DNA of 11,799 bases from a virus (Duplodnaviria; Heunggongvirae; Uroviricota; Caudoviricetes), in IMG/VR virus record IMGVR_UViG_2562617151_000001, positions 1 through 11,799 of that record; one strand, written 5' to 3'. This document shows positions 1 through 11,799 of this stretch, piece after piece (the stretch's first letter is position 1; each line of letters starts with the position of its first letter). The notes beneath the pieces are model-generated. The model was not told where the DNA came from. It worked only from the letters and a program-made list of their open reading frames with translations, and searched no databases. The position numbers and the translations under genes were made by a program.

Positions 1-1254
1 ATGCTGGAACAAATGGGCATTGCCGCGAAGCAAGCCTCGTATAAATTAGCGCAACTCTCCAGCCGCGAAAAAAATCGCGTGCTGGAAAAAATCGCCGATG
101 AACTGGAAGCACAAAGCGAAATCATCCTCAACGCTAACGCCCAGGATGTTGCTGACGCGCGAGCCAATGGCCTTAGCGAAGCGATGCTTGACCGTCTGGC
201 ACTGACGCCCGCACGGCTGAAAGGCATTGCCGACGATGTACGTCAGGTGTGCAACCTCGCCGATCCGGTGGGGCAGGTAATCGATGGCGGCGTACTGGAC
301 AGCGGCCTGCGTCTTGAGCGTCGTCGCGTACCGCTGGGGGTTATTGGCGTGATTTATGAAGCGCGCCCGAACGTGACGGTTGATGTCGCTTCGCTGTGCC
401 TGAAAACCGGTAATGCGGTGATCCTGCGCGGTGGCAAAGAAACGTGTCGCACTAACGCTGCAACGGTGGCGGTGATTCAGGACGCCCTGAAATCCTGCGG
501 CTTACCGGCGGGTGCCGTGCAGGCGATTGATAATCCTGACCGTGCGCTGGTCAGTGAAATGCTGCGTATGGATAAATACATCGACATGCTGATCCCGCGT
601 GGTGGCGCTGGTTTGCATAAACTGTGCCGTGAACAGTCGACAATCCCGGTGATCACAGGTGGTATAGGCGTATGCCATATTTACGTTGATGAAAGTGTAG
701 AGATCGCTGAAGCATTAAAAGTGATCGTCAACGCGAAAACTCAGCGTCCGAGCACATGTAATACGGTTGAAACGTTGCTGGTGAATAAAAACATCGCCGA
801 TAGCTTCCTGCCCGCATTAAGCAAACAAATGGCGGAAAGCGGCGTGACATTACACGCAGATGCAGCTGCACTGGCGCAGTTGCAGGCAGGCCCTGCGAAG
901 GTGGTTGCTGTTAAAGCCGAAGAGTATGACGATGAGTTTCTGTCATTAGATTTGAACGTCAAAATCGTCAGCGATCTTGACGATGCCATCGCCCATATTC
1001 GTGAACACGGCACACAACACTCCGATGCGATCCTGACCCGCGATATGCGCAACGCCCAGCGTTTTGTTAACGAAGTGGATTCGTCCGCTGTTTACGTTAA
1101 CGCCTCTACGCGTTTTACCGACGGCGGCCAGTTTGGTCTGGGTGCGGAAGTGGCGGTAAGCACACAAAAACTCCACGCGCGTGGCCCAATGGGGCTGGAA
1201 GCACTGACCACTTACAAGTGGATCGGCATTGGTGATTACACCATTCGTGCGTAA
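1..1254 (+). CDS. proA: gamma-glutamyl phosphate reductase (glutamate-5-semialdehyde dehydrogenase), complete, 417 aa
   Basis: ORF 1..1254 translates to [30 protein letters not shown]...[13 protein letters not shown], which I recognise as E. coli ProA at full length (aldehyde dehydrogenase fold). Its position immediately upstream of thrW matches the K-12 arrangement proA-thrW. Confidence 0.96.
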
Positions 1255-1368
1255 ATAAAACCGGGTGATGCAAAAGTAGCCATTTGATTCACAAGGCCAT
1301 TGACGCATCGCCCGGTTAGTTTTAACCTTGTCCACCGTGATTCACGTTCGTGAACATGTCCTTTCAGG

Positions 1369-1444
1369 GCCGATATAGCTCAGTTGGTAGAGCAGCGCAT
1401 TCGTAATGCGAAGGTCGTAGGTTCGACTCCTATTATCGGCACCA
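1369..1444 (+). tRNA. thrW: tRNA-Thr, anticodon CGU
   Basis: 76-nt sequence GCCGATATAGCTCAGTTGGTAGAGCAGCGCATTCGTAATGCGAAGGTCGTAGGTTCGACTCCTATTATCGGCACCA read directly: 7-bp acceptor stem GCCGATA/TATCGGC, D-loop AGTTGGTAG, anticodon loop TTCGTAA (anticodon CGT), T-arm GGTTCGACTCC, encoded CCA. thrW is the known integration target of P22-family integrases. Confidence 0.95.
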
Positions 1445-1458
1445 TTTAAATCAATAAG

Positions 1459-2622
1459 TTACACATCATTAGTACCTTCCTTATTTTTTGACTGGGACAA
1501 ATTTGGGACCGATGGGTTCAGGATCGAGTCTATTTGCCGTGCGTGTTCGGTAAGGTGATTAGGTGCGAGGTGAGCATATCGACGAACCATTTCGATAGAC
1601 TCCCAGCCTCCCATTTCCTGTAACACTGACAACGGGACACCGGCTTGAACCAGCCAACTTGCCCAGGTGTGTCTCAAGTCATGAAATCTGAAATCATCAA
1701 TACCAGCTCGTCTCAGCGCCGCTTTCCAGGCTGTGTTTGCGTCATATCGCATCTTCCTGACTGTTGGCGCTTTCGTTCCGTCTGGTTTGGTACAGCTTTC
1801 CTTGTACACAAATACCCAATGGTGATGATTCCCGATTTGTTTTTTCAATACGCGACATGCAGTATCATTCAGCGCAACGCCAATTGCGCGGTTTGATTTA
1901 CTCTCTTCCGGGTTTATCCATGCCACCCGGCGCTGCATATCTATTTGTTGCCATTCAAGGTTGATGATGTTCGAGCGTCTTAAGCCTGTTGCCAGTGCAA
2001 ATTCAACAACAGACTTTAATGGCTCCGGACATTCATCAATCAGCCTTTGTGCTTCATGAGGCTCCAGCCAGCGGATCCGTTTATTCTTTGGTTGAGGCAC
2101 TTTAATAATTGGTGCCTTATCCAGCATTTTCCATTCACGCTCTGCGGCTCTTAGTAGGGCCTTTATAAATGAAAGATGCGTAGCCTTCGTTGCAACGGAC
2201 GCTGGTTTTGGCGTGTATTCTGGAACAGGTTTCCCTTTTTTTCTGCATGCTTCTGCCCTGAGTTTCCAGTTTTCCTCATGACGCCGGTTCGTCATTTTCT
2301 GCATTGCTGAATAAATTTTTGATTCAGTAATGTCTCTTAGTTGCATTCCTGCGAAATGTTGAAGCCAGAATCCGATCCGGCTTTTGTCATCGTCCAGTGA
2401 TTTTTTATGTGCTTTCTCTTCAAGCCACCTGACACACGCTTCCTCGAACGTTATATCAGGTATTTCACCAAGTTTGCTGACCCGCCATGCTTCAGCCTTT
2501 AGCTTGTCATGGAGTTCTGTCGCCTGCCTTTTGTCCTTTGTTCCAAGAGACTGTTTAAATCTTTTACCGTTCGGCAATGTGAAACTGGCGTACCATATTT
2601 CACCTCTGCGGAAGAGTGACAT
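1459..2622 (-). CDS. int: phage integrase, tyrosine recombinase, P22 Int-like, 387 aa
   Basis: ORF translation [47 protein letters not shown]...[39 protein letters not shown] matches my recollection of P22 integrase almost end to end, including the C-terminal R..H..R..Y catalytic region. It is adjacent to the tRNA target; stop TAA at 1461-1459. Confidence 0.95.
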
Positions 2623-2849
2623 TTTCTTTCCTCTGTTATGCCATCACCCGCGCTCACCTGGACAGTATGCAGCGGAGACTGAAGAGCCGCAATGCAGGCT
2701 TGTCGTGTTGTGAGGTAAGGAGATTTATTCTTAGTGGGATCTTTGCGTGTTGCCTGAAGACGCCCTGTGCGTATCCAGTTAATGGCAGTCGGTCTGGATA
2801 TCTTGAGAAAATGACAGGCCTCATCGAGTGTGAGGCTGTATGGCTCCAT
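2499..2849 (-). CDS. xis: excisionase (P22 Xis-like), 116 aa
   Basis: The internal ATG at 2849-2847 gives [57 protein letters not shown]..., a P22-type Xis with a helix-turn-helix. The 28 codons upstream in the track ORF look like a read-through artefact. The ATG overlaps the stop of the upstream gene as TAATG. The 3' end overlaps int by 124 nt in another frame. Confidence 0.8.
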
Positions 2850-3154
2850 TATTTCACCTCTTGCTGTGACATTGTTGAAAAATGGATACCAGCTCGTTGC
2901 TGCCAGACGATCCAACCGAGAGTCATATCCCATGCCATGTATTCGTTATCGCCGTTTTTTGCTCTCCGACGATCTACTAAGTCACCGAAACGCTTTTCCA
3001 TGAATAATTCATAAGCTTCGCGTTCATCTGGTTCTACTTCCAGAGATCGGAGTGCGATTTCATAAGCACGGCGCTCAATATCGTCTCGCACGTCAAGGCT
3101 GCTGATACGCTCTTTAATTTCTTTAATCAGTTCTTTGTCGGTAAAAGTGGTCAT
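2849..3154 (-). CDS. YfdT-like prophage early-left protein, 101 aa, function unknown
   Basis: ORF MTTFTDKELIKEIKERISSLDVRDDIERRAYEIALRSLE...; its position and length fit the CPS-53 yfdT slot (from memory). Start ATG 3154-3152 overlaps the stop of the upstream gene as TAATG; its own stop overlaps the xis start. Confidence 0.7.
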   Translation of the reverse strand: MTTFTDKELIKEIKERISSLDVRDDIERRAYEIALRSLEVEPDEREAYELFMEKRFGDLVDRRRAKNGDNEYMAWDMTLGWIVWQQRAGIHFSTMSQQEVK

Positions 3155-3516
3155 TATGCTCCAGCCTCCGGTGCTTTTGGCATTACTGCCCAGTGAGTGA
3201 TATTGACGTTTTCAAGGTCCCCGACCTGAAATGTCCACTGCCATTCTCCGGTTTCTTTTTGTCCCCAGGTGTACCAGAGAGAACGCCAGCCAATTAGCCA
3301 GCCTTCTCCGTTAGCATCGAATAACAAAACACTTTCATTTGCTGGTGGCAGTTCAGTTGACACTGGTATTACTTTGTTTTCCTGTGCTGCACATTTAGCT
3401 TCAAGCGCATCGAATTTACGCACCAGGTATTCAGCATCTGTTTCATTTACTTTCAGATCTCGCGGTACACATCTCCCACGAAGAAACCCTTCCATTTCGA
3501 AAACATTCATGCGCAT
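3154..3516 (-). CDS. YfdS-like prophage early-left protein, 120 aa, function unknown
   Basis: ORF MRMNVFEMEGFLRGRCVPRDLKVNETDAEYLVRKFDALEAK...THWAVMPKAPEAGA. Coupled to neighbours: the upstream gene's TGA (3509-3507) overlaps ATG codon 3 of this ORF, and its stop overlaps the downstream start. Confidence 0.7.
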   Translation of the reverse strand: MRMNVFEMEGFLRGRCVPRDLKVNETDAEYLVRKFDALEAKCAAQENKVIPVSTELPPANESVLLFDANGEGWLIGWRSLWYTWGQKETGEWQWTFQVGDLENVNITHWAVMPKAPEAGA

Positions 3517-4043
3517 TTGCGTAACTCCGATAACTCGTTAAAGCGTTCCATAAACATCCCGTAGGCATGGCCCGGTGCCAGTGGAATCACGTTGAACATC
3601 TCTGTTGCCGGGATACCTTCCAGTACAGGCCAGAAAGAGCCATCATCAAGCCCGAGATCGCGGCGTTCGGTTGCCAGCATGATGAGATCGGCATATTTCA
3701 CGGGCGTACTCATAACTGGGGGTAACCCGTATTTCTCACGGATTACGGCGTCTATTTTTTCTTCCATTTGTTTATAGTCAGGAAGAAGGCGTTTCAGTGG
3801 TGCGGGAATGTCCTGACAATACGCTTCTGTTGCATCATGCATTAACGCTTCGAAAGCAAACTCCTGCGGTACCAGCTGGCTGCAAAGCACCGCATGTTGG
3901 GCGACGCTGTAGAAGTGTGAAAGATGCCCTGCAAAGCGACAGATATTTGAGAGGGAAACTGCGATATCGTTAATCACGATGTCGTCTTTATTTATCCTGT
4001 CATAATAAAAATGCTTCCCGGAAAAAGTTTTAATAAATGACAT
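3507..4043 (-). CDS. HD-domain phosphohydrolase, YfdR-like (putative 5'-nucleotidase), 178 aa
   Basis: Start chosen at MSFIKTFSGKHFYY (ATG 4043-4041), preceded by GGAG about 8 nt upstream; the track ORF starts 9 codons earlier without an SD. HD signature visible: ...HLSHFYSVAQHAVL...EALMHDATEAY.... The length matches my recollection of K-12 YfdR. Confidence 0.8.
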   Translation of the reverse strand: MSFIKTFSGKHFYYDRINKDDIVINDIAVSLSNICRFAGHLSHFYSVAQHAVLCSQLVPQEFAFEALMHDATEAYCQDIPAPLKRLLPDYKQMEEKIDAVIREKYGLPPVMSTPVKYADLIMLATERRDLGLDDGSFWPVLEGIPATEMFNVIPLAPGHAYGMFMERFNELSELRKCA

Positions 4044-4170
4044 TTTGTTCTCCACGTATATGCGCTGCACCGCGCTGAATTCTGGTAAAAGGAAGCCCTC
4101 ACCATCCGGTGATTATTGAGTTAATTACGTTTCCATAAATGCCCCCGCAGGGGCATTTGCAGTAATGAAA

Positions 4171-4995
4171 TCAGGCGGTGAAAGTACCAATAAAGGTTTC
4201 GACTTTGCTGTCTTTGAATTTCTCAACAAGCAGATCACGAAATTCGTTAGCCATTTCTTCCTGCACTGCTTCCAGCTGAATAATGCGCAGAACCAGTACA
4301 GGGCGATCACCAGTGATAATGCTGAGTCGTAATTTAAATGGACGTTCTTTCAGGCCTTCAAACGGAACGCATTTAAATTCAAATGCCACTGGCATAATGT
4401 CTTTGGTCTTCGCTTCGACAGACTCCATCAGGGAGCGTTTGCCGCTGAAGTCATTGTCTTCAAAATCAGCAGTCTGGTTCGCTTCAATTGTGATTTTACG
4501 GACTGCCGCAGCCGCTTTTGTTGCCTGAATGGCGTCACCATTAGCATCAAAGCCCACAAGGTAGTCGGCCCAGTCTTCAATCCATTCTGCCAGTGACTTC
4601 TGGGAGTTACGCTCGCCGTTAACAGACAACAGAGCAGAGAACGGTGCTGTCTTTTTCAGTTTGAGAGTGGCGGTGTTATCTGCGTGACCTGGTTCATCAA
4701 TAGTACCCAGGTTAAGCACACTGACGGCACGCATATTATCAGCATCGATAAAGCAGCGGGTGCCTTCATCTGCAAGATCTTTAGAATAACGGGTAAAGTC
4801 ATCGATGCTGGCAGTGGAAAGCGCACCACGGAAACGGAAGCGATTTAAATTAAATTTTTCCAGATCATGAATGCGGAAATTCTCAGGCAATGCCACAGCA
4901 TCGGCACCAATCTTACTGATAATTTCATTAACACCCTGAGCAGAAATAAGGGCATGGATTTGATTAATTGCGGTTGCGTCTAAGTTCTGAGACAT
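4171..4995 (-). CDS. YfdQ-like protein (I recall this as the DUF2303 family), 274 aa
   Basis: [60 protein letters not shown]...; SD GAGGA about 6 nt upstream of ATG 4995-4993. The order yfdP-Q-R-S-T-like is the same as in CPS-53. Confidence 0.8.
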
Positions 4996-5060
4996 AATAA
5001 GTCCTCACTATATAAAGATATTCAGTGATGAGATAAATAATCAGTTAATTAAAAACGATA

Positions 5061-5423
5061 TTAACGACCTGCTGCGCGGAGTTTTCCGTCAGGTTCACCG
5101 GCAAGAGTCAGTAACTGTCCCTGGTCTTCCTGCAGAATAGTCAGGCGACCACCGCGATTGACATACATCGGCGTTTCGGTGGTGTCTTCTTCGGAAATTT
5201 TCCCGCGGTTAGTCGGGCGAACATATGAGAGTTTGTGTTTGATTTTCACACGGTTCTCATCAAATGGTTCGATTTCCAGGTTGAGTGAGACCTTACCTTT
5301 GGTTTTCGTGTTCATCACACCGGAAGCGACTTCACTGAGAACTGCGCCGATTTTGGTTTCAAATACGCCGCCGTCCAGCTCCCCGATAAATGCATGCACA
5401 TCAGTACTGCGTTCGCTAGCCAT
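5061..5423 (-). CDS. YfdP-like prophage protein, 120 aa; the track ORF is N-terminally over-extended
   Basis: Start placed at MASERSTDVHAFIGELDGGVFETKIGAVLSEV (ATG 5423-5421) because GAGGAG lies about 8 nt upstream. The 106 codons upstream in the track ORF are R/C/P-rich low-complexity translation of GC-rich non-coding DNA. Confidence 0.65.
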   Translation of the reverse strand: MASERSTDVHAFIGELDGGVFETKIGAVLSEVASGVMNTKTKGKVSLNLEIEPFDENRVKIKHKLSYVRPTNRGKISEEDTTETPMYVNRGGRLTILQEDQGQLLTLAGEPDGKLRAAGR

Positions 5424-5439
5424 TTTGCTGCTCCTCATC

Positions 5440-5760
5440 ATATCGACCCTGCAAGGCCGATTAGTTTCTCCACAAAACAGAGAAGAACACCTGCGGTGGC
5501 AGCCGCCCGGATGGATTGGGTTATGAGCCCGTCGTCCGGTGATGCTCTTCTCTGTTTTGTAAAAAGGACGGTACCAGCCGGAAGCAAGGGTACAAACTGG
5601 TACCGCCGGGACTACACACAGCATAAAGTTGTGGTGCCGGGTGCCTCCCGGTGCCTGGCGAAGGTTGCACACCAGACGGGTGGGTATCCACAGAAGGTCG
5701 ACTGTCAGCCTCAACCTTAACCCGCGTGCGCTGAGCCGCATTCACCACAACGCTAAGAAT
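5440..5760. other. GC-rich structured non-coding block; candidate structured RNA or relic of a foreign element
   Basis: No credible ORF in any frame (all translations are R/P/C-rich). Contains a perfect 15-bp inverted repeat (5472-5486 with 5546-5560), a 9-bp stem (5569-5577 with 5597-5605) and long-range 9-nt complementarity (5628-5636 with 5743-5751). Visibly more GC-rich than the flanking phage DNA. Confidence 0.3.
5472..5560. repeat. perfect 15-bp inverted repeat ACAAAACAGAGAAGA / TCTTCTCTGTTTTGT separated by a 59-nt GC-rich spacer
   Basis: Read directly: arm 5472-5486 is the exact reverse complement of 5546-5560; 2 further complementary bases lie inside after one mismatch. Confidence 0.85.
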
Positions 5761-5824
5761 TCTCTCTGGTTGAAAATACTTAGCTGTTATGTGCCTGCTT
5801 TTAGCCACATCAGGCGAGGTGGAC

Positions 5825-5876
5825 CTGGTTATTCCCCAACAACAAGGATTCGGTTAATCTGGTTATCCCCAACAAC
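5825..5876 (+). repeat. tandem direct repeat CTGGTTAT(T)CCCCAACAAC x2, 34-bp period, immediately upstream of the 144-aa ORF
   Basis: Copy 1 at 5825-5843 and copy 2 at 5859-5876 differ by one extra T; a partial CTGGTT copy lies at 5766-5771. Copy 2 ends 5 nt before the AAGGA SD of the ORF starting at 5892. Confidence 0.8.
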
Positions 5877-5891
5877 GCAAAAGGAAAAGAA

Positions 5892-6326
5892 ATGTCCGGT
5901 AATATCTATACGCTGTACAAATCCCACTGTGAAAATGTTGGAAAGTATCGGGGCATTGAAATCAGTGGGGTAGTGTCATCAGTCGAAATAAGCAAAGTTG
6001 AATCAAGGGCAACATTACTTACTCTTCTGGACCTTGTCTTACATGAGCACCGGAAGAAATTCGGCACTCCCTATAATCAGTTGAATGGGAAAAAAGCTCT
6101 GGTTCACCTTATTCTGATGAAGCATCACTGGATGCCAAAACAGATTAATGAGATGAAATTTGATGAACTTCTTCTTTCAATTCAGGATGAATTCACGCTT
6201 GATAAAATAAGCGTAACCGCCCAGAAATTTTTAGATTATCGAGACTGGAGATCACAAATTCATCACTTTGATGATTTTGACGAAAATGAATGGGATCCTA
6301 ATTTGTCTGCACAATATCTAAAGTAA
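5892..6326 (+). CDS. hypothetical protein, 144 aa, no recognisable family; moron-like, opposite strand to the early-left operon
   Basis: ATG 5892 preceded by AAGGA with a 6-nt spacer; stop TAA 6324-6326. Protein MSGNIYTLYKSHCENVGKYRGIEISGVVSSVEISKVESRATLLTLLDLVLHEHRKKFGTPYNQ... has protein-like composition (K/E/D/H-rich, ordinary hydrophobic content). AT-rich codon usage contrasts with the neighbouring GC-rich block. Confidence 0.7.
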   Translation: MSGNIYTLYKSHCENVGKYRGIEISGVVSSVEISKVESRATLLTLLDLVLHEHRKKFGTPYNQLNGKKALVHLILMKHHWMPKQINEMKFDELLLSIQDEFTLDKISVTAQKFLDYRDWRSQIHHFDDFDENEWDPNLSAQYLK

Positions 6327-6504
6327 CATCCTGTGATAAAACCGTGATTTCCTGATCCAGTTTTTTTAAGGAGTCTATTGTTTCCTGTCGATAAGACAGC
6401 ACTTCACGAAGCTGGTTTATAGCTGCCAGCTTCTTTGCCATCCACTCGTAAATTTCCTCATTTGTGTATCCGGGCGCGACGATTTTGGGTTCTGTTTTGT
6501 GCAT
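6298..6504 (-). CDS. hypothetical small protein, 68 aa; first gene downstream of the putative P_L (the position of N)
   Basis: Start at MHKTEPKIVAPGYTNEEIYEWMAKKLAAINQLREVL... (ATG 6504-6502), preceded by a strong SD GAGGAGG about 7 nt upstream; the track ORF begins 5 codons earlier. The 3' end overlaps the 144-aa ORF by 29 nt (convergent). Confidence 0.6.
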   Translation of the reverse strand: MHKTEPKIVAPGYTNEEIYEWMAKKLAAINQLREVLSYRQETIDSLKKLDQEITVLSQDVTLDIVQTN

Positions 6505-6562
6505 TTCACACCTCCTCAAGTTATCAGTTACTTGTTGATGGGGACCAGATTGTTAAAGAGCT

Positions 6563-6590
6563 AAGCGTCCTGTAGGGCGCTTTTTTGTTG
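6563..6590 (+). terminator. intrinsic (rho-independent) terminator-like hairpin plus T-tract
   Basis: AAGCGTCC-TGTA-GGGCGCTT stem (8 bp including one G-U) followed by TTTTTT at 6581-6586. On the minus strand the stem is preceded by an A-tract and followed by a U-poor sequence, so it is mainly plus-strand and at most weakly bidirectional. Confidence 0.55.
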
Positions 6591-6669
6591 CTAACGAATC
6601 ACCCTAGACTTTATATGCCCCAGGCGGCTACTTCGTGGGCGTCCTGCCTGTTCGTTATCTTTGATATAA

Positions 6670-6740
6670 AATCTAACTTAACTTAGTTATTATGGCAAGA
6701 GAAAACACCAAACTTTTCTTAGTTCGGTGCCTTAGTTAGA
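6670..6740 (-). promoter_or_regulatory. putative O_L / P_L region (leftward early promoter with repressor operators)
   Basis: Heptamer CTTAGTT occurs at 6682, 6718 and 6731, the same motif as in the cI-cro intergenic region. Minus-strand candidate promoter: -35 TTGCCA (complement of 6693-6698), 17-nt spacer containing AACTTAGTT, -10 TAGATT (complement of 6670-6675). Confidence 0.4.
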
Positions 6741-6751
6741 GAAGAGAGGTC

Positions 6752-7378
6752 TTAGAGTTCGTATTGAACTCCTTTGACTACACCAATGATAAGGCAATTA
6801 CCATTGATAGGGATGTTGGGATACCGAGGATTTAATGGCACTAAAAACTTTTGAGGGCCATCGATGACTAATTTTTTTACTGTAGCTTCGTTTGTTCCAT
6901 CAAGTCGAGCGATGACTATTTTTCCATGACGAGGTTCTGCATCTGGATCTACAATCACTGTTGCGCCTTCTGGTATTGTTGGGAGGCCATTAGGGTTAGT
7001 CATGGAGTCACCTTTAACCTCTAATGCAAATGAGTTATCACCAATCTTTAATGATGTATCTACCCACTTGTCCACTTCACTAAACACTTCTGCTGCCCTG
7101 CACTCAGTAAACTGCCCAGCCTGAACCCACGATATTACAGGAACTCTGCGCATGTTTGTGACGAGTTTGCCTTCAAACTCAGCACCATAAAGAATGTAAT
7201 CTATTGACGTATTGAAGAACTTCGCTAATTTCGAAAGTGCCTCCCCACCAGGGGTATTGATGTCTTTCTCCCAGTACCCCACAGCAACGTCGCTTACTCC
7301 ACAAAATTTACCCAATTCTTTCTGGGACGTTCCGGTAACTCTTCTCAGAGCTTTTATACGCTGACCAACCGTTTCCAT
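6752..7378 (-). CDS. cI: prophage repressor, CI / P22 C2-like (N-terminal HTH plus C-terminal S24 LexA-like autopeptidase domain), 208 aa
   Basis: ORF METVGQRIKALRRVTGTSQKELGKFCGVSDVAVGYWEKD... (HTH) ... ISWVQAGQF...LEVKGDSMTNP...ATVIVDPDAEPRHGKIVIARLDG.EATVKKL...GNCLIIGVV. Ser-Lys dyad context and overall architecture match the lambda CI / P22 C2 class. Divergent from cro. Confidence 0.92.
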   Translation of the reverse strand: METVGQRIKALRRVTGTSQKELGKFCGVSDVAVGYWEKDINTPGGEALSKLAKFFNTSIDYILYGAEFEGKLVTNMRRVPVISWVQAGQFTECRAAEVFSEVDKWVDTSLKIGDNSFALEVKGDSMTNPNGLPTIPEGATVIVDPDAEPRHGKIVIARLDGTNEATVKKLVIDGPQKFLVPLNPRYPNIPINGNCLIIGVVKGVQYEL

Positions 7379-7396
7379 AGGAGCACCATTTCTTGA

Positions 7397-7468
7397 ATTG
7401 CTAAGTAATCTTAGTTTTTATTGACCAAAGATAGATTTGTAATTAGCATCTAATAAAACTTAGTTTGG
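7397..7468 (+). promoter_or_regulatory. putative O_R / P_R region between cI and cro
   Basis: Near-palindrome CTAAGTAATCTTAG at 7401-7414; CTTAGTT at 7410 and 7459; 9-mer AACTTAGTT at 7457-7465 is identical to 6680-6688. Candidate P_R: -35 TTGACC 7421-7426, 17-nt spacer, -10 TAGCAT 7444-7449, then SD GGAGG 7467-7471 and cro ATG 7476. Confidence 0.45.
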
Positions 7469-7475
7469 AGGGCGT

Positions 7476-7676
7476 ATGACAACTGACGATATCGAAAGCT
7501 ACTTCGGCAGTATTGAGAAAGTTGCTGCTTTTTTCGGCATAACAACTGAAGCCGTTTATCAGTGGCGAAACCGTCCGGGCCAGTTAATTCCAAAAGGACG
7601 TGCAGCAGAAGCTGCATATAGAACTTGCGGACGGTTGCCATTTAAACCTGAGCTTTATGAAAAATCTAATGGATAA
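7476..7676 (+). CDS. cro: Cro-like transcriptional regulator (Cro / YdaS-type HTH), 66 aa
   Basis: [69 protein letters not shown]; a small HTH protein divergently transcribed from the repressor, with an SD in front. Confidence 0.85.
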   Translation: MTTDDIESYFGSIEKVAAFFGITTEAVYQWRNRPGQLIPKGRAAEAAYRTCGRLPFKPELYEKSNG

Positions 7677-8265
7677 ATCGATTAACAGAAACCACAGAAC
7701 GATGAGGCTAACCGTGGGTAAGCATCACTGGAAAGTAGAAAAACAGCCTGAGTGGTACGTGAAAGCTGTCAGAAAAACTATCGCAGCGTTGCCGGGTGGT
7801 TACGCTGAAGCAGCTGACTGGCTGGATGTAACAGAGAACGCATTATTTAACCGCCTTCGTGCCGATGGCGATCAGATTTTCCCGCTGGGATGGGCAATGA
7901 TTTTGCAACGTGCTGGTGGAACTCACTTCATTGCTGACGCTGTGGCGCAGTCTGCAAATGGCGTCTTTGTGTCTCTTCCTGATGTCGAGGATGTGGACAA
8001 CGCCGATATCAACCAACGCCTGCTGGAGGTCATTGAACAGATCGGCAGTTATTCAAAACAGATTCGTTCAGCAATTGAAGACGGTGTAGTGGAACCGCAT
8101 GAGAAGACAGCAATTAACGACGAGCTGTACCTCTCAATTTCGAAGCTGCAGGAGCATGCAGCACTGGTCTACAAAATTTTTTGCATTTCAGAAAGTAATG
8201 ACGCCCGCGAGTGTGCAGCTCCGGGCGCCGTGGCGTGTCGTGACTGTGGAGAAACTAACGCATGA
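7657..8265 (+). CDS. CII-like phage regulatory protein (YdaT / CP76-type); start uncertain
   Basis: ORF ...[73 protein letters not shown]...; lies directly after cro as in lambdoid layouts. Candidate starts are ATG 7657 and ATG 7669 (the latter 5 nt upstream of the cro stop); the track's 7600 start is a GTG only 1 nt after an SD-like AAAGGA and is unlikely. Confidence 0.65.
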
Positions 8266-8440
8266 ACAGTTTAACAACACACTACCGTCGCTCGCAACTG
8301 ATTGCGCTTCCTGTACCGGGTGGAAAAGCGAAGGTGGAGTATTGCTATGCAGTAAATGTACCAGGTGGCAGGGTAATTGTAACCCACAGCTTTGCAGAGT
8401 GGGCTGTGGGTGATTTTAACCGGCAAAAGGAGACAGTCCT

Positions 8441-8620
8441 TTGCGACAAGTTAACCGCTGGTTCAAAGATCACTACGGAGTACCCGTCAGAGTCATTCGT
8501 TGGGAGCCGGAAACACAACGGGTTATCTACCTCCGCGAAGGCTATGAGCATGAATGCTTCAGTCCGCTCGAACAGTTTCGTCGTAAATTCAGGGAAATAG
8601 AGGTCGGTCATGAGCACTAA
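8441..8620 (+). CDS. possible small protein (59 aa) with TTG start; alternative to the ATG-initiated 112-aa ORF 8262..8600
   Basis: AAGGAG sits 8 nt upstream of TTG 8441. The frame gives [59 protein letters not shown], a protein-like composition, ending at TAA 8618-8620 (overlapping the initiator start by 11 nt). It is absent from the ATG/GTG-based track. Confidence 0.35.
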
Positions 8621-9581
8621 ATTAACCGGCTATGTATGGGATGGTTGCGCTGCGTCAGGCATGAAATTATCCAGCGTGGCAATTATGGCCCGCCTGGCTG
8701 ATTTCAGTAATGACGAAGGTGTGTGCTGGCCATCAATTGAAACCATTGCCCGTCAGATTGGCGCGGGGATGAGTACCGTCAGAACGGCTATCGCACGGCT
8801 GGAAGCAGAAGGCTGGTTAACGCGTAAGGCGCGTCGCCAGGGTAACCGCAATGCGTCGAATGTTTATCAGCTTAACGTTGCGAAGCTTCAGGCAGCGGCA
8901 TTTTCTCAATTGTCAGATTCTGACCCGTCAAAATCTGACGCATCAAAATCTGACCCGTCAAAATCTGACGCATCAAAATCTGACCCGTCAAAATTTGATG
9001 CGTCGAAATCTGGCAAAAAAGCGGGTTTTCACCCGTCAGAATCTGGCGGGGATCCGTCAGTAAAATCAAAACATGATCCGTCAGATAAAAAAACTTCTCG
9101 TCCGGACGCTTCGCAACCGGACACGCAGACGGCTGAACAGGAGTTTTTAACTCGCCATCCTGATGCGGTTGTATTCAGCCCTAAAAAGCGCCAGTGGGGA
9201 ACGCAGGATGATTTGACCTGCGCACAGTGGCTCTGGAAAAAAATCATCGCCCTGTACGAGCAGGCCGCCGAATGTGACGGCGAGGTGGTTCGTCCCAAAG
9301 AACCGAACTGGACAGCCTGGGCAAACGAAATTCGCCTGATGTGTGTGCAGGATGGTCGTACTCACAAACAAATCTGCGAGATGTACAGCCGCGTCAGCCG
9401 CGATCCGTTCTGGTGCCGTAACGTGCTCAGCCCGTCGAAGCTGCGGGAAAAATGGGATGAGCTTTCCCTGCGCTTATCGCCGTCCGTCAGCACGTACACA
9501 GAAAAACGCGAAGACCCGTACTTCAAAGCCAGTTACGACAACGTGGACTACAGCCAGATCCCGGCAGGATTCAGGGGGTGA
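8610..9581 (+). CDS. phage replication initiation protein (lambda O-like role; N-terminal HTH, internal iteron-encoded linker), 323 aa
   Basis: N-terminus [70 protein letters not shown] is a typical helix-turn-helix replication-protein domain. The internal SDPSKSDASKSDPSKSDASK stretch is encoded by a 15-bp iteron array, the lambdoid ori-within-initiator arrangement. SD AGAGG precedes ATG 8610. Confidence 0.85.
   Translation: MSTKLTGYVWDGCAASGMKLSSVAIMARLADFSNDEGVCWPSIETIARQIGAGMSTVRTAIARLEAEGWLTRKARRQGNRNASNVYQLNVAKLQAAAFSQLSDSDPSKSDASKSDPSKSDASKSDPSKFDASKSGKKAGFHPSESGGDPSVKSKHDPSDKKTSRPDASQPDTQTAEQEFLTRHPDAVVFSPKKRQWGTQDDLTCAQWLWKKIIALYEQAAECDGEVVRPKEPNWTAWANEIRLMCVQDGRTHKQICEMYSRVSRDPFWCRNVLSPSKLREKWDELSLRLSPSVSTYTEKREDPYFKASYDNVDYSQIPAGFRG
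8919..9008. repeat. iteron array: six tandem 15-bp units alternating TCTGACCCGTCAAAA / TCTGACGCATCAAAA; probable prophage origin of replication
   Basis: Units at 8919, 8934, 8949, 8964, 8979 and 8994 (the last degenerate), with degenerate copies flanking (8911-8918, 9009-9023) and GATCCGTCAG repeated at 9051 and 9075, followed by an A-rich stretch at 9084-9095. Located inside the initiator CDS. Confidence 0.85.
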
Positions 9582-9583
9582 TC

Positions 9584-10072
9584 ATGAGTCTTTTGAATGA
9601 AGTTCAGAAATACATTGAAGCCCATCCGGGGTGTACTTCCGGAGACATTGCGGATGCTTTTGCAGGTTACTCACGGCAGCGCGTTCTGCAGTCAGCAAGC
9701 AAGTTACGTCAGAGTGGGCGTGTGGCTCACCGTTGTGAAGGGGATACACGCAGACATTTCCCGCGCCTGACTGAGAGAGCGCAGGAGGCGGAACCGCAAC
9801 CAGTTCGTGAAACCAGACCTGTGCGCAATTTCTATGTCGGCACTAACGACCCGCGGGAGATTTTGTGCCTGACCCGCCAGGCTGAAGAACTGGAGTCCAG
9901 GGGCTTATACCGTCGTGCTGCAACGGTGTGGATGGCGGCATTCCGTGAAAGCCACTCCCAGCCAGAACGAAACAATTTTCTGGCGCGTCGTGAGCAGTGT
10001 TTACGGAAAAGCAGCAAGCGCGCTGTATCGAGTGATGAGTGGTATCTGTCAGGGAATTACGTGGGGGCGTAA
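9584..10072 (+). CDS. PerC-family (Pch-like) regulator domain protein with an N-terminal winged-helix-like region, 162 aa
   Basis: C-terminal LTRQAEELESRGLYRRAATVWMAAFRESHSQPERNNFLARREQCLRK matches the PerC/Pch signature (LE..GLWRRAA..W ... RR..C). ATG 9584 is preceded by GGGGG; the GTG 9578 in the track is less likely. The stop overlaps the next start as TAATG. Confidence 0.6.
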   Translation: MSLLNEVQKYIEAHPGCTSGDIADAFAGYSRQRVLQSASKLRQSGRVAHRCEGDTRRHFPRLTERAQEAEPQPVRETRPVRNFYVGTNDPREILCLTRQAEELESRGLYRRAATVWMAAFRESHSQPERNNFLARREQCLRKSSKRAVSSDEWYLSGNYVGA

Positions 10073-10398
10073 TGACGACGTTAACTCAATGCCAGCAGCA
10101 GGTGCTGGATATGCTGATTTCTTATCAGAAAGAGCGTGGCTTTCCGCCAACCAATCAGGAGGTGGCAACCATGCTGGGATACCGTTCAGTGAATGCAGCG
10201 GTAGAGCATCTTCGCGCACTGGAGAAAAAAGGCGTCATCACGATAAAGCGTGGCGTGGCCCGGGGGATAACGCTTCATACCGCGGTGAAGGACGACGACA
10301 GCGAGGCGGTCGGGATTATCCGCGCACTGCTTGCCGGTGAGGAAAACGCAAGGTTGCGTGCAACCCACTGGTTACATGAGAGGGGCCTGAAAGTATGA
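10072..10398 (+). CDS. LexA N-terminal DNA-binding-domain protein without the S24 peptidase domain, 108 aa
   Basis: MTTLTQCQQQVLDMLISYQKERGFPPTNQEVATMLGYRSVNAAVEHLRALEKKGVITIKRGVARGITL aligns by eye with the LexA DNA-binding domain (LexA: ...[55 protein letters not shown]...). No Ser/Lys peptidase domain follows. Confidence 0.7.
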   Translation: MTTLTQCQQQVLDMLISYQKERGFPPTNQEVATMLGYRSVNAAVEHLRALEKKGVITIKRGVARGITLHTAVKDDDSEAVGIIRALLAGEENARLRATHWLHERGLKV

Positions 10399-10784
10399 AG
10401 CTGATCCTGCCTTTTCCGCCCAGCGTGAACACGTACTGGCGACACCCCAACAAAGGGGCGTTTGCAGGTAAGAGCCTGATAAGCGCGGCGGGGCGCAAAT
10501 TCCAGAGCGCGGCGTGTGCAGCAATAGTTGAGCAGTTACGTCGTCTGCCAAAACCAACGTCGGCACCTGCTTCAGTGGAGATCGTGTTGTTTCCTCCGGA
10601 TAACCGGATCCGCGATCTGGACAACTATAACAAGGCGCTGTTTGACGCCCTGACCCACGCGGGTGTGTGGGAAGACGACAGCCAGGTGAAAAGAATGCTG
10701 GTGGAGTGGGGACCGGTTATCCCGGAAGGGAAGGTCGAGATCACTATCAGTAAGTACGAGAAAACGGCGGGTGCAGCCGCCTGA
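10395..10784 (+). CDS. rusA: Holliday-junction resolvase RusA (crossover junction endodeoxyribonuclease), 129 aa
   Basis: MKLILPFPPSVNTYWRH...DNRIRDLDNYNKALFDALTHAGVWEDDSQV... follows the RusA pattern (PP..N.YYRH ... RRDLDN..K...DALT.AG.W.DD.QV). ATGA overlap with the upstream stop; typical nin-region gene. Confidence 0.88.
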   Translation: MKLILPFPPSVNTYWRHPNKGAFAGKSLISAAGRKFQSAACAAIVEQLRRLPKPTSAPASVEIVLFPPDNRIRDLDNYNKALFDALTHAGVWEDDSQVKRMLVEWGPVIPEGKVEITISKYEKTAGAAA

Positions 10785-10803
10785 TCAAGAGGAGAAACGA
10801 AGT

Positions 10804-11247
10804 ATGAATAATCTGATGGTCATTGATGGTATTGAAGTTCGTCGTGATGCTTATGGGCGTTACAGCCTGAACGATCTGCATCGCGCAGCAGTAGCATCTG
10901 GTGCAAATGCCAGAACCAAGGAGCCGGGAAAGTTTCTTTCCAGCCAACAAACTGTTGAGCTTGTTCATGAATTGACCAACACCCAGAATTTGGGTGTTGA
11001 CCCGGTGAGTGTGATTCATGGGGGAAATGAACGGGGAACTTATGTCTGCAAGGAACTGGTGTATGCCTATGCAATGTGGATCAGCCCGTCATTCCATCTG
11101 AAGGTGATCCGTACTTTCGACATGGTAACCAGCGCACCGGAAAAATTATCCGGACAGGCTGCTGACAAGATGCAGGCTGGTGTGATTCTGCTGGACTTTA
11201 TGCGTCGGGAGTTACCCGAACCGCGACAAGCCCTATATCCGGAGTAA
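10804..11247 (+). CDS. KilA-N domain protein, 147 aa
   Basis: Start at MNNLMVIDGIEVRRDAYGRYSLNDLHRAA (ATG 10804, SD AAGAGGAG 9 nt upstream); the GTG 10771 in the track is unlikely. ...GTYVCKELVYAYAMWISPSFHLKVIRTF fits the conserved KilA-N C-terminal block. Confidence 0.7.
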   Translation: MNNLMVIDGIEVRRDAYGRYSLNDLHRAAVASGANARTKEPGKFLSSQQTVELVHELTNTQNLGVDPVSVIHGGNERGTYVCKELVYAYAMWISPSFHLKVIRTFDMVTSAPEKLSGQAADKMQAGVILLDFMRRELPEPRQALYPE

Positions 11248-11250
11248 TCC

Positions 11251-11799
11251 ATGCATCGTATAGACACGAAAACCGCGCAGAAGGATAAGTTCGGCGCGGG
11301 TAAGAACGGTTTTACCCGTGGTAACCCCCAGACAGGCACGCCTGCCACCGATCTGGATGATGACTACTTTGACATGTTGCAGGAGGAGCTTTGCAGCGTG
11401 GTGGAGGCATCCGGTGCCAGCCTAGAGAAGGGGCGGCACGACCAGTTGCTTACCGCGCTTCGTGCGCTGCTGTTAAGCCGCAAGAATCCGTTTGGCGATA
11501 TCAAATCGGACGGCACGGTGAAAACGGCTCTCGAAAACCTTGGTTTGGGAGAAGCGGCGAAAAGGGATGTGGGCACAGGAGATAATCAGATACCGGATAT
11601 GGGAGCATTCGCTTCTGGTTCGGGATGGTTCAGGCTACCAGGTGGATATATTGTTCAGTTTGGCACTTTTTCAGGAAACACGACCCGCTTTATCAGTGGA
11701 CACTTCCCTATACCATTCCCTAATCAGCCGATGGTTTCAGTCAGTGTTATGTCTGATGCCGTTCAGTCAGACCCGTCGAATCCTCGCCCCGCAGGTTTT
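11251..11799 (+). CDS. tail-fibre-like protein, N-terminal 183 codons; 3' end beyond the window
   Basis: ATG 11251 with GGAG 7 nt upstream; open to the window end (absent from the track because there is no stop). Translation [74 protein letters not shown]...[21 protein letters not shown] resembles phage tail-fibre proteins by recollection; the family assignment is tentative. Confidence 0.5.

Follow-up and report, generated by a model that had tools for sequence, protein, structure and literature searches.

A strand-asymmetric hairpin as the predicted terminator of swappable gene cassettes facing P_L in SfV/SfIV/e14-like lambdoid prophages

Introduction

The morons of the lambdoid phages HK97 and HK022 were reportedly described by Juhala et al. 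in 2000 as units made of a promoter, a gene and a terminator. Lambda OOP and P22 sar are dedicated antisense RNAs of ~70 nucleotides (nt) with their own promoters and one target each, and the leaders of ribosomal RNA (rrn) operons have a boxB upstream of their boxA. This article concerns a hairpin that touches on all these systems, located at positions 6563–6582 of a stretch of 11,799 nt of viral DNA (IMG/VR record IMGVR_UViG_2562617151_000001, positions 1 to 11,799), hereafter the window, at the end of a gene cassette that lies beside the early leftward promoter P_L and runs convergently to it.

In the rrn operons, both boxB and boxC are dispensable (PMC2724277). The boxA consensus of the gammaproteobacteria is GYTCTTTAANA (PMC5725501), and the Nus factors bound to boxA shield long untranslated RNAs, namely ribosomal RNA and clustered regularly interspaced short palindromic repeat (CRISPR) arrays, from Rho (PMC7665894, PMC2724277).

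The window covers an SfIV/SfV/e14-like lambdoid prophage from the integrase to the replication genes, and its part from 5700 to 6800 is 98.5–99.2% identical to Shigella phage SfIV and several Escherichia coli phages. An earlier, sequence-only reading had taken the hairpin for the terminator of a moron. For the present analysis, the locus was compared with annotated phages and E. coli genomes, with 120 viral contigs collected through the hairpin pattern, and with 66 loci of a species-level genome collection found through the core of a leader RNA described below; individual loci are designated by L numbers. The reading that we prefer, with a probability of about 0.7, is that the hairpin is a one-directional, Rho-independent terminator of the plus strand, predicted to insulate the P_L leader, P_L and the cI gene from transcription of the cassette cargo.

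The hairpin and its rarity

The features on which the argument turns are the following, the minus strand being the P_L strand.

6563–6582, plus strand: predicted terminator hairpin, with an 8-base-pair (bp) stem that includes five G-C pairs and one conserved T.G wobble, and a 4-nt loop
6581–6590, plus strand: T-tract TTTTTTGTTG, with six T among the eight nt after the stem
6549–6561, minus strand: rrn-type boxA GCUCUUUAACAAU, two bases after the hairpin on the P_L strand and the sole exact copy in the window
5892–6326, plus strand: cargo open reading frame (ORF) of 144 amino acids (aa), ECs1072 family (NCBIfam NF033230, 6.4e-46; phrog_5286), convergent with P_L
6298–6504, minus strand: 68-aa gene (phrog_1744, 4.8e-34), preceded by a GGAGG Shine-Dalgarno sequence and leading the P_L transcript in this type of cassette
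6698–6670, minus strand: P_L promoter-like site TTGCCA-17-TAGATT, with the operator repeat CTAACTTAACTTAG within its spacer

The hairpin reads AAGCGTCC-TGTA-GGGCGCTT, then TTTTGTTG, and its run of six T (6581–6586) extends into the stem, where the first two T pair with A6563 and A6564. As plus-strand RNA it has a predicted energy of −11.0 kcal/mol and is present in the minimum free energy fold of 6540–6600. It is the top plus-strand match of a lenient terminator scan, a method of low specificity that returned 27 sites in the window against 12.3 ± 3.7 in shuffles. When strict criteria were applied (at least eight pairs, at least five G-C pairs, a loop of 3–8 nt and at least six T in eight), the hairpin was the sole site left in the window on either strand; dinucleotide-shuffled windows held 0.06 such sites on average, with one or more in 5 of 100 shuffles. 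It begins 237 nt past the stop codon of the 144-aa ORF and 59 nt beyond the ATG of the 68-aa gene, and no other gene of the same orientation lies between the 144-aa ORF and the hairpin. In stem, U-tract and position it has the form of an intrinsic terminator, and the 3' ends of plus-strand transcripts are predicted at about 6586–6590. The sequence-only reading was right, then, in placing a hairpin with a T6 run downstream of the 144-aa stop, past the entire 68-aa gene, and in calling it an intrinsic terminator of the plus strand.

Conservation and strand asymmetry

Fifteen sequence variants of the hairpin were collected from eight genera, namely Escherichia, Klebsiella, Enterobacter, Kosakonia, Atlantibacter, Buttiauxella, Raoultella and Izhakiella. 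The stem is identical in 14 of them, and the exception (L195, from Izhakiella, the most divergent variant) gains a second G.U pair and so keeps its plus-strand pairing. Every variant has 5–7 T after the stem, while the bases past the T-run differ, as do the loops, for which TGTA, TATA, TGCG, AATC, AAT, AGCG, AGTA, TTCG and ATT were recorded.

The two strands are not equivalent. In the window, the P_L-strand version of the hairpin reaches −6.5 kcal/mol against −11.0 kcal/mol for the plus strand; in all 15 variants the plus-strand hairpin is the more stable by 3.9–6.3 kcal/mol, and the P_L-strand stem only attains −3.0 to −7.6 kcal/mol. It is weaker there because the conserved T.G pair is read as a C.A mismatch, and L195, with its two G.U pairs on the plus strand, has two such mismatches on the P_L strand. 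The P_L strand also has a homopolymer run before the stem and, after it, AGCUCUUUAAC in place of a U-tract. Asymmetry of the strands, a kept stem and T-run, and a variable loop together are the signature of a terminator predicted to act in one direction, on the plus strand.

The same variants bear on the possibility that the hairpin has no role in termination and is a passenger, for example a site that stabilizes or processes the 3' end of the cargo messenger RNA (mRNA), or a hitch-hiker next to boxA. The stem is indeed conserved without compensatory changes, all copies may derive from one module that spread recently, and selection on the neighborhood could be explained by boxA alone. Set against this, the loop and the bases after the T-run have diverged across eight genera while stem and T-run were kept, the only change in the stem (L195) preserves plus-strand pairing through G.U, and a GC-rich 8-bp stem with T6 is expected by chance only 0.06 times per window. 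We give this possibility very little credence.

A conserved block with exchangeable contents

The hairpin belongs to a conserved block at 6532–6592, of the form CCAGATT-GTTAAAGAGC-N-AAGCGTCC-loop-GGGCGC-T(5–7), which is fused to boxA in all copies. It is carried by 1018 of 5426 complete E. coli genomes, where it is never annotated, and by seven other genera, a conservation well above what chance would give; ML35 and UTI89 are among the E. coli strains that have it. In 104 of 127 copies, the start of the search pattern and the core of the leader RNA are a constant 71 nt apart (or 72 nt, in three cases). At the opposite end of the cassette stands a second conserved element.

5818–5877, no strand assigned: conserved left block, two direct repeats of CTGGTTAT(T)CCCCAACAAC

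This left block is kept across Escherichia, Klebsiella, Enterobacter, Kosakonia, Atlantibacter, Buttiauxella and Izhakiella. The contents between the two blocks vary. In E. coli and Shigella prophage contigs the terminator block adjoins six types of cassette, each beginning with a plus-strand ORF; the main cargo ORFs and their distances from stop codon to hairpin are:

170 aa, plus strand: 27 nt
163/171 aa, plus strand: 39 nt
165 aa, plus strand: 42 nt
144 aa, plus strand: 237 nt (the window)
167 aa, plus strand: 178 nt
159 aa, plus strand: 232 nt

Hence in three of the six types (170, 163/171 and 165 aa) the cargo ends 27–42 nt before the hairpin, with no P_L-sense gene between. An annotated P_L-sense gene at this position was seen only in the cassette with the 144-aa and 68-aa genes, and the L056/L198 type has an unannotated 97-aa ORF where the 68-aa gene would be. 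At least seven unrelated cargo ORFs are served by the block, further cargo families occur in other genera, and the slot as a whole has at least eight alternative contents in E. coli. Proline-rich short ORFs (...PEPKPE... or ...PPEPKPKSR) flank the main cargo ORF in L005, at ~1340–1440 and ~2030–2130, and in some other cassettes.

The association with convergent cargo is close. A convergent ORF stands beside the hairpin in 10 of 10 species-level hairpin loci, L195 included, and hairpin, boxA and left block are all missing from cassettes that hold P_L-sense genes only, such as the SfV orf33 type (L001, L007, L009) and the H50 type (L199). Likewise, the block is found in none of the 12 species-level loci in which a sense ORF starts 47–106 nt after the start of the invariant leader core. 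In Klebsiella phage Kp4882-1, the module follows another repressor and another leader, and the 64-nt leader RNA is missing, which makes the module a portable unit. Taken in order, the module consists of the left block with its two direct repeats, a variable cargo ORF directed against P_L, a right arm, the boxA complement, and the hairpin with its T-run. On this comparison of sequences, the hairpin is the fixed, promoter-proximal end of a convergent-cassette module of SfV/SfIV/e14-like lambdoid prophages, and is not specific to the 144-aa and 68-aa genes. A separate rule, that every convergent ORF behind the leader has a terminator, was considered and lacks support, as many hairpin-less loci show none (the ORF calls in these loci being mechanical and unverified).

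The cassette in the window

The cassette has a GC content of 39–41%, against 53% for the neighboring gene, and is thus as poor in GC as a moron should be; the 144-aa ORF has 39%, and the window as a whole 49%. Atypical composition is accompanied by presence or absence among close relatives. The proposal that a moron-like convergent cassette lies beside the P_L leader is supported, and the 68-aa gene is, as had been suggested, the first P_L gene. That it is a real gene is shown by its membership of phrog_1744, its strong Shine-Dalgarno sequence and the similarity of its protein, a distant member of the YdfC family, with 38–39% identity to ydfC genes of other lambdoid phages. Searches of Pfam and PADLOC with the 144-aa and 68-aa proteins gave nothing, and those of NCBIfam and PHROGs only the name "ECs1072 family" and families of unknown function.

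With regard to the cargo promoter, a candidate was noted by eye, TTCCCC-17-TAATCT, which is weak (6 of 12 consensus matches), and the left block has a −10-like element that reads TAATCT in the window and takes better forms in other variants, TATAAT in L005 and GATAAT in L010. The left block at 5818–5877 may thus hold the cargo promoter. A consensus scan found no promoter-like plus-strand site between 6326 and 6563.

These data bear on the stronger claim of the sequence-only reading, that the terminator is positioned so as to give the moron transcript a long 3' untranslated region (UTR) antisense to the 68-aa gene, in analogy to OOP or sar; on this model, the overlap would be a selected means of repressing the first P_L gene in lysogens. 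Complementarity as such is not in question, given that any plus-strand transcript that reaches the hairpin necessarily covers the whole gene and its ribosome-binding site: one that ends at 6586–6590 would span the 68-aa gene, the Shine-Dalgarno sequence and 59 nt of leader. Moreover, the 144-aa and 68-aa genes are always found together (418 and 411 E. coli genomes, respectively), their 3' ends overlap by 29 nt, and the 97-aa ORF of L056/L198 occupies the equivalent position. The word "positioned" is what fails. The place of the hairpin is fixed by the module whatever the cassette holds, the same block serves cassettes without any P_L-sense gene and with the cargo stop 27–42 nt away, and the 68-aa gene is absent from ~60% of block-carrying E. 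coli genomes (411 with the gene, 1018 with the block). Further points against this view are that no dedicated antisense promoter was found, the cargo promoter being itself only a candidate, that OOP and sar are short RNAs of ~70 nt where here there is an mRNA tail, and that the overlap may be shortened by a weaker stop within it.

6411–6430 (6411–6438 with its tail), plus strand: weaker hairpin GCTGG..CCAGC, −8.8 kcal/mol, with the interrupted T-rich tail TTCTTTGC, a part of the 3' UTR where it runs antisense to the 68-aa gene

On balance we regard selected antisense control as unlikely, and the overlap with the 68-aa gene is best seen, from the distribution of the cassettes, as a by-product of what this one happens to contain, although in the cassette type with both genes it could still have consequences.

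The boxA and the bracketing inverted repeat

On the P_L strand, the hairpin is followed by boxA, whose sequence GCTCTTTAACA at 6561–6551 is a perfect match to GYTCTTTAANA; arithmetic from the degeneracy of the motif gives ~0.05 expected matches per window. Over 13 nt it is identical to the rrnG boxA-spacer sequence ugcucuuuaacaauuua (taken from PMC2724277). In 10 of 10 species-level hairpin loci, the A-run ahead of the hairpin on this strand begins 24–25 nt before boxA does. It also occurs without the hairpin (L159, L168, L173, L174, L177 and L143), and its presence in hairpin-less P_L leaders marks it as a genuine element of the P_L transcript. Two of these loci, L173 and L177, are Xenorhabdus prophages in which boxA TGCTCTTTAACA is followed by a lambda/P22-like boxB GCGCTGAAAAAGCGC, behind the same leader RNA, which therefore coexists with N-type nut sites in some phages.

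The neighborhood of boxA raises the question of whether the hairpin works on the P_L transcript instead, either as an attenuator or as the boxB-like half of a nut site bound by a phage antiterminator. It would lie ~75–100 nt into that transcript, directly 5' of a perfect boxA, to which it is linked at fixed spacing and in the order, hairpin then boxA, seen in rrn. Its properties point the other way. The P_L-strand stem is broken by the C.A mismatch (two in L195) and is weak in energy, AGCUCUUUAAC stands after it in place of a U-tract, and the terminator rule failed on this strand. The loop differs in nearly every lineage, unlike the sequence-specific recognition of boxB by N, and boxA stands elsewhere without the hairpin, sometimes with a true lambda-like boxB on its 3' side (L173, L177). 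The loop, the bias of the stem toward the plus strand and the side on which the T-run stands thus argue against both a P_L attenuator and a boxB recognized by a protein. Finally, no match to an antiterminator-annotated family was found among the early-left ORFs scanned, a scan that left out 2499–2933 and did not include a search for arginine-rich motifs. An action on the P_L transcript is accordingly quite improbable, and the weak attenuator that had been suggested for this orientation is disfavored as well, by the mismatch, by the homopolymer run before the stem and by the boxA after it.

Leftward transcription from P_L should start at about 6662 and proceed through the 68-aa gene and the antisense strand of the 144-aa ORF to the yfdP/yfdQ-like genes. 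Along this path, ~556 nt are untranslated on the P_L strand, from the stop of the 68-aa gene (6298) to the next mechanically called start (5741). Three E. coli cassette types have no P_L-sense ORF in between, and there the P_L strand goes untranslated over the full length of the cassette. A prediction of Rho sites from C/G skew in the antisense RNA showed one modest C-rich stretch at ~6000–5920 and was uninformative. The cassette is bracketed by an inverted repeat:

6532–6551, no strand assigned: right arm, directly after boxA on the P_L strand and slightly overlapping it
5833–5875, no strand assigned: left arm or arms, 5856–5875 or 5833–5846 pairing with 6532–6551, within the direct repeats of the left block
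L004, 1315–1333 and 1876–1894: corresponding arms
L008, 1315–1338 and 1855–1878: corresponding arms

Such arms are present in 14 of 14 representative loci, with AATCTGG/CCAGATT at their outer ends, and their duplexes have predicted energies of −20 to −30 kcal/mol. In L151 and L184, both arms are wholly different in sequence and still complementary to each other; the left arm of these two loci falls within the start of a proline-rich short ORF. Where arms differ by transitions, G.U pairs result 24 times on the P_L-strand RNA and 8 times on the plus strand, and the mean duplex energy is −24.5 kcal/mol for the former against −22.7 kcal/mol for the latter; judged from sequence, this modestly favors a pairing of the arms in the P_L transcript. 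The repeats were also considered as the ends of an invertible segment, a reading that was dropped since a flipped cassette occurs in 0 of 119 loci.

A structured leader RNA ahead of the block

The 5' end of the P_L transcript is predicted to fold into a conserved structure.

6594–6655, minus strand: leader RNA, with helices P1 (6655–6651/6598–6594) and P3 (6624–6620/6607–6603)

It has an invariant core of 25 nt, GGCAGGACGCCCACGAAGUAGCCGC, at 6648–6624, and a conserved loop, GGCRUAUGAAGA. The species-level genome collection has 66 loci with the exact core, nearly all from Enterobacterales and ranging from Xenorhabdus and Yersinia to Pantoea and Kosakonia, and the leader RNA occurs in 1398 of 5426 (26%) complete E. 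coli genomes. In its two helices, of 5 bp each, pairing holds for 95.3% of the alignment cells, and compensatory changes were seen at 8 of the 10 pairs. None of 500 shuffles attained the observed covariation score of 0.659 (shuffles gave 0.177), and sliding the partners gave at most 0.123. Rfam, searched at the gathering threshold and at E ≤ 10, gave nothing beyond noise for the hairpin, the boxA block and the leader RNA, and literature searches on the leader core, ECs1072 and SfV/SfIV antitermination returned nothing relevant. The leader RNA appears to be previously undescribed. It is present as a single copy in the window, with no second copy of the putR kind.

By analogy with the put sites, it is plausible that the leader RNA acts as an antiterminator in cis, the circumstantial signs being that it opens the P_L RNA, that no N-like protein was detected and that strong terminator-like hairpins lie downstream. 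Two such hairpins were observed on the P_L strand at 5478–5606, both in the N-terminal third of a mechanically called ORF of 226 aa (5061–5741):

5557–5606, minus strand: terminator-like hairpin with a 13-bp stem and then UUUUUAC, between the cassette and the yfdP-like gene
~5551–5478, minus strand: second terminator-like hairpin, a long stem followed by UUUUGUGG

The first is kept in 81 of the 130 loci with enough downstream sequence. The N-terminal third of the 226-aa ORF gave no family matches, and the true start of the yfdP-like gene is probably the ATG at 5423.

Proposed role

From its structure, statistics, conservation, strand asymmetry and association with convergent cargo, all directly observed, we infer that the hairpin terminates transcription and insulates, and that boxA has a part of its own, as follows. 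Transcription of the cargo would be halted at the hairpin before it enters the leader RNA of P_L, O_L/P_L and the antisense strand of cI. The plus-strand terminator ends 3 nt short of the complement of the leader RNA, which fits such an insulating role. In the other direction, the G.U pair, which is C.A on that strand, and the missing U-tract would let P_L transcription through. At a second level, boxA on the P_L transcript would recruit NusB/NusE and other Nus factors, and P_L transcription modified in this manner might survive Rho across the untranslated RNA that is antisense to the cargo.

Several observations weigh against insulation by a plus-strand terminator. The consensus scan found no sigma-70-like plus-strand promoter in 5742–5891, upstream of the 144-aa ORF, and the weaker hairpin at 6411–6438 could serve as a partial early stop of plus-strand transcripts. 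The stem shows no covariation at all among the 15 variants, and its conservation could stem from the recent spread of one module or from selection on the overlapping boxA and A-run. Lastly, there are several loci without the hairpin in which convergent ORFs were called mechanically and no terminator is obvious, so that insulation would not be universal.

A more elaborate version, drawn by analogy with known antitermination systems and rather doubtful, is that the locus is a two-strand device by which temperate phages could keep accessory genes that face backwards within the early-left operon. One strand would hold the one-way stop; on the other, the same 60 nt encode boxA and, directly after it, the 5' arm of a long-range helix that has its 3' arm past the cargo. 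P_L transcription, Nus-modified and Rho-resistant, would handle the antisense cargo as an rRNA operon handles 16S rRNA, while the insert forms a loop that RNase III might cut out. A put-like leader antiterminator, independent of protein, would be needed for transcription to pass the strong intrinsic terminators ahead of yfdP.

Other features of the window

The immunity region to which the cassette is adjacent, and the end of the prophage, contain the following.

6752–7378, minus strand: CI repressor, LexA-like
7476–7676, plus strand: Cro, with a CII-like gene and then an O-like replication gene farther along
7401–7421 and 7440–7465: relatives of the operator repeat CTAACTTAACTTAG, near cro
6694–6733, minus strand: 13-bp hairpin AAGGCACCGAACU/AGUUUGGUGUUUU followed by CUCUUGCC, just past the cI stop
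1369–1441, plus strand: transfer RNA gene (Rfam, 71.8 bits)
1459–2622, minus strand: integrase gene, directly adjoining the transfer RNA gene

The hairpin at 6694–6733 overlaps O_L and the −35 element of P_L, and is a candidate terminator of the cI transcript. The junction of the transfer RNA and integrase genes is likely the attachment site, and with it the end, of the prophage.

Significance

A moron followed by a terminator is nothing unusual in itself, and the OOP-like interpretation is to be downgraded. What is new relative to known moron terminators is the combination of a reusable, strand-asymmetric terminator with an rrn-type boxA and a helix that brackets the cassette, in a setting where no N protein was detected. 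The block, unannotated though present in roughly a fifth of complete E. coli genomes, marks a hot spot beside the immunity switch where unrelated genes of the lysogenic-conversion or defense type are swapped in, in antisense orientation. The block suggests how phages may answer two problems, namely how to keep moron transcription out of cI and P_L, and how to keep early-left transcription alive over untranslated antisense RNA. Either a site made of boxA only, no N protein having been detected, or the covarying leader RNA could extend the short list of processive antitermination mechanisms.

Comparison with known systems

As with OOP and sar, a plus-strand RNA opposite an early gene of the immunity region would end at an intrinsic terminator and would be fully complementary to that gene. 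In contrast to them, the RNA here would be a 3' UTR of ~260 nt belonging to an mRNA, and the terminator is equally present where the target gene is missing; neither a short dedicated RNA with its promoter nor a conserved arrangement of antisense and target was found.

The locus shares with the nut sites of lambda and P22 a boxA in the P_L leader, and related Xenorhabdus prophages carry boxA together with boxB hairpins of the GCGCUGAAAAAGCGC type. Unlike in nut, boxA is followed by an inverted-repeat arm, and the sole local hairpin stands on its 5' side, with a loop that varies and a P_L-strand stem that is mismatched. The lambda pair of a GNRA-like boxB 3' of boxA and an arginine-rich N was not seen, N-like proteins going undetected in the ORFs scanned.

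The leader RNA is reminiscent of HK022 putL (PMC9378689) in being a conserved structured RNA of ~65–70 nt directly downstream of P_L, in a phage without N and with terminator-like hairpins downstream. The two differ in architecture, putL having two side-by-side stem-loops and the leader RNA a closing helix P1 around the invariant 25-nt core plus one hairpin. Homology between them was considered and rejected: HK022 was not among the blastn matches, and no motifs are shared with its 27.6–30.1 kb region.

A further parallel is the insulator terminator at the end of Tn916 (PMC11658703), a terminator of a mobile element proposed to keep the transcription of one module out of a neighboring regulatory module. 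Element, host and logic of orientation differ from those here, and the Tn916 terminator has no boxA on the opposite strand.

Like the boxA of rrn operons and of CRISPR arrays (PMC7665894, PMC5725501, PMC2724277), the one described here comes early in the transcript, ahead of a long untranslated stretch. A likeness to rrn operons may also exist in what follows boxA, that is, one arm of a long-range stem that has its other arm on the far side of the untranslated insert. It differs from rrn in that the setting is a phage P_L leader without recognizable N or boxB, and the insert is the antisense of a protein-coding moron.

The nearest relatives remain the lambdoid morons, with which the cassette shares a low-GC accessory gene between conserved phage genes, an intrinsic terminator of its own and polymorphism of the cargo among relatives. 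Unlike in those morons, the cassette is antisense to an early operon, an inverted repeat brackets it, and its terminator and a boxA of the opposite strand are fused. Here, too, it is the ends that are conserved and not the cargo, one left block and one terminator block serving at least seven unrelated ORFs.

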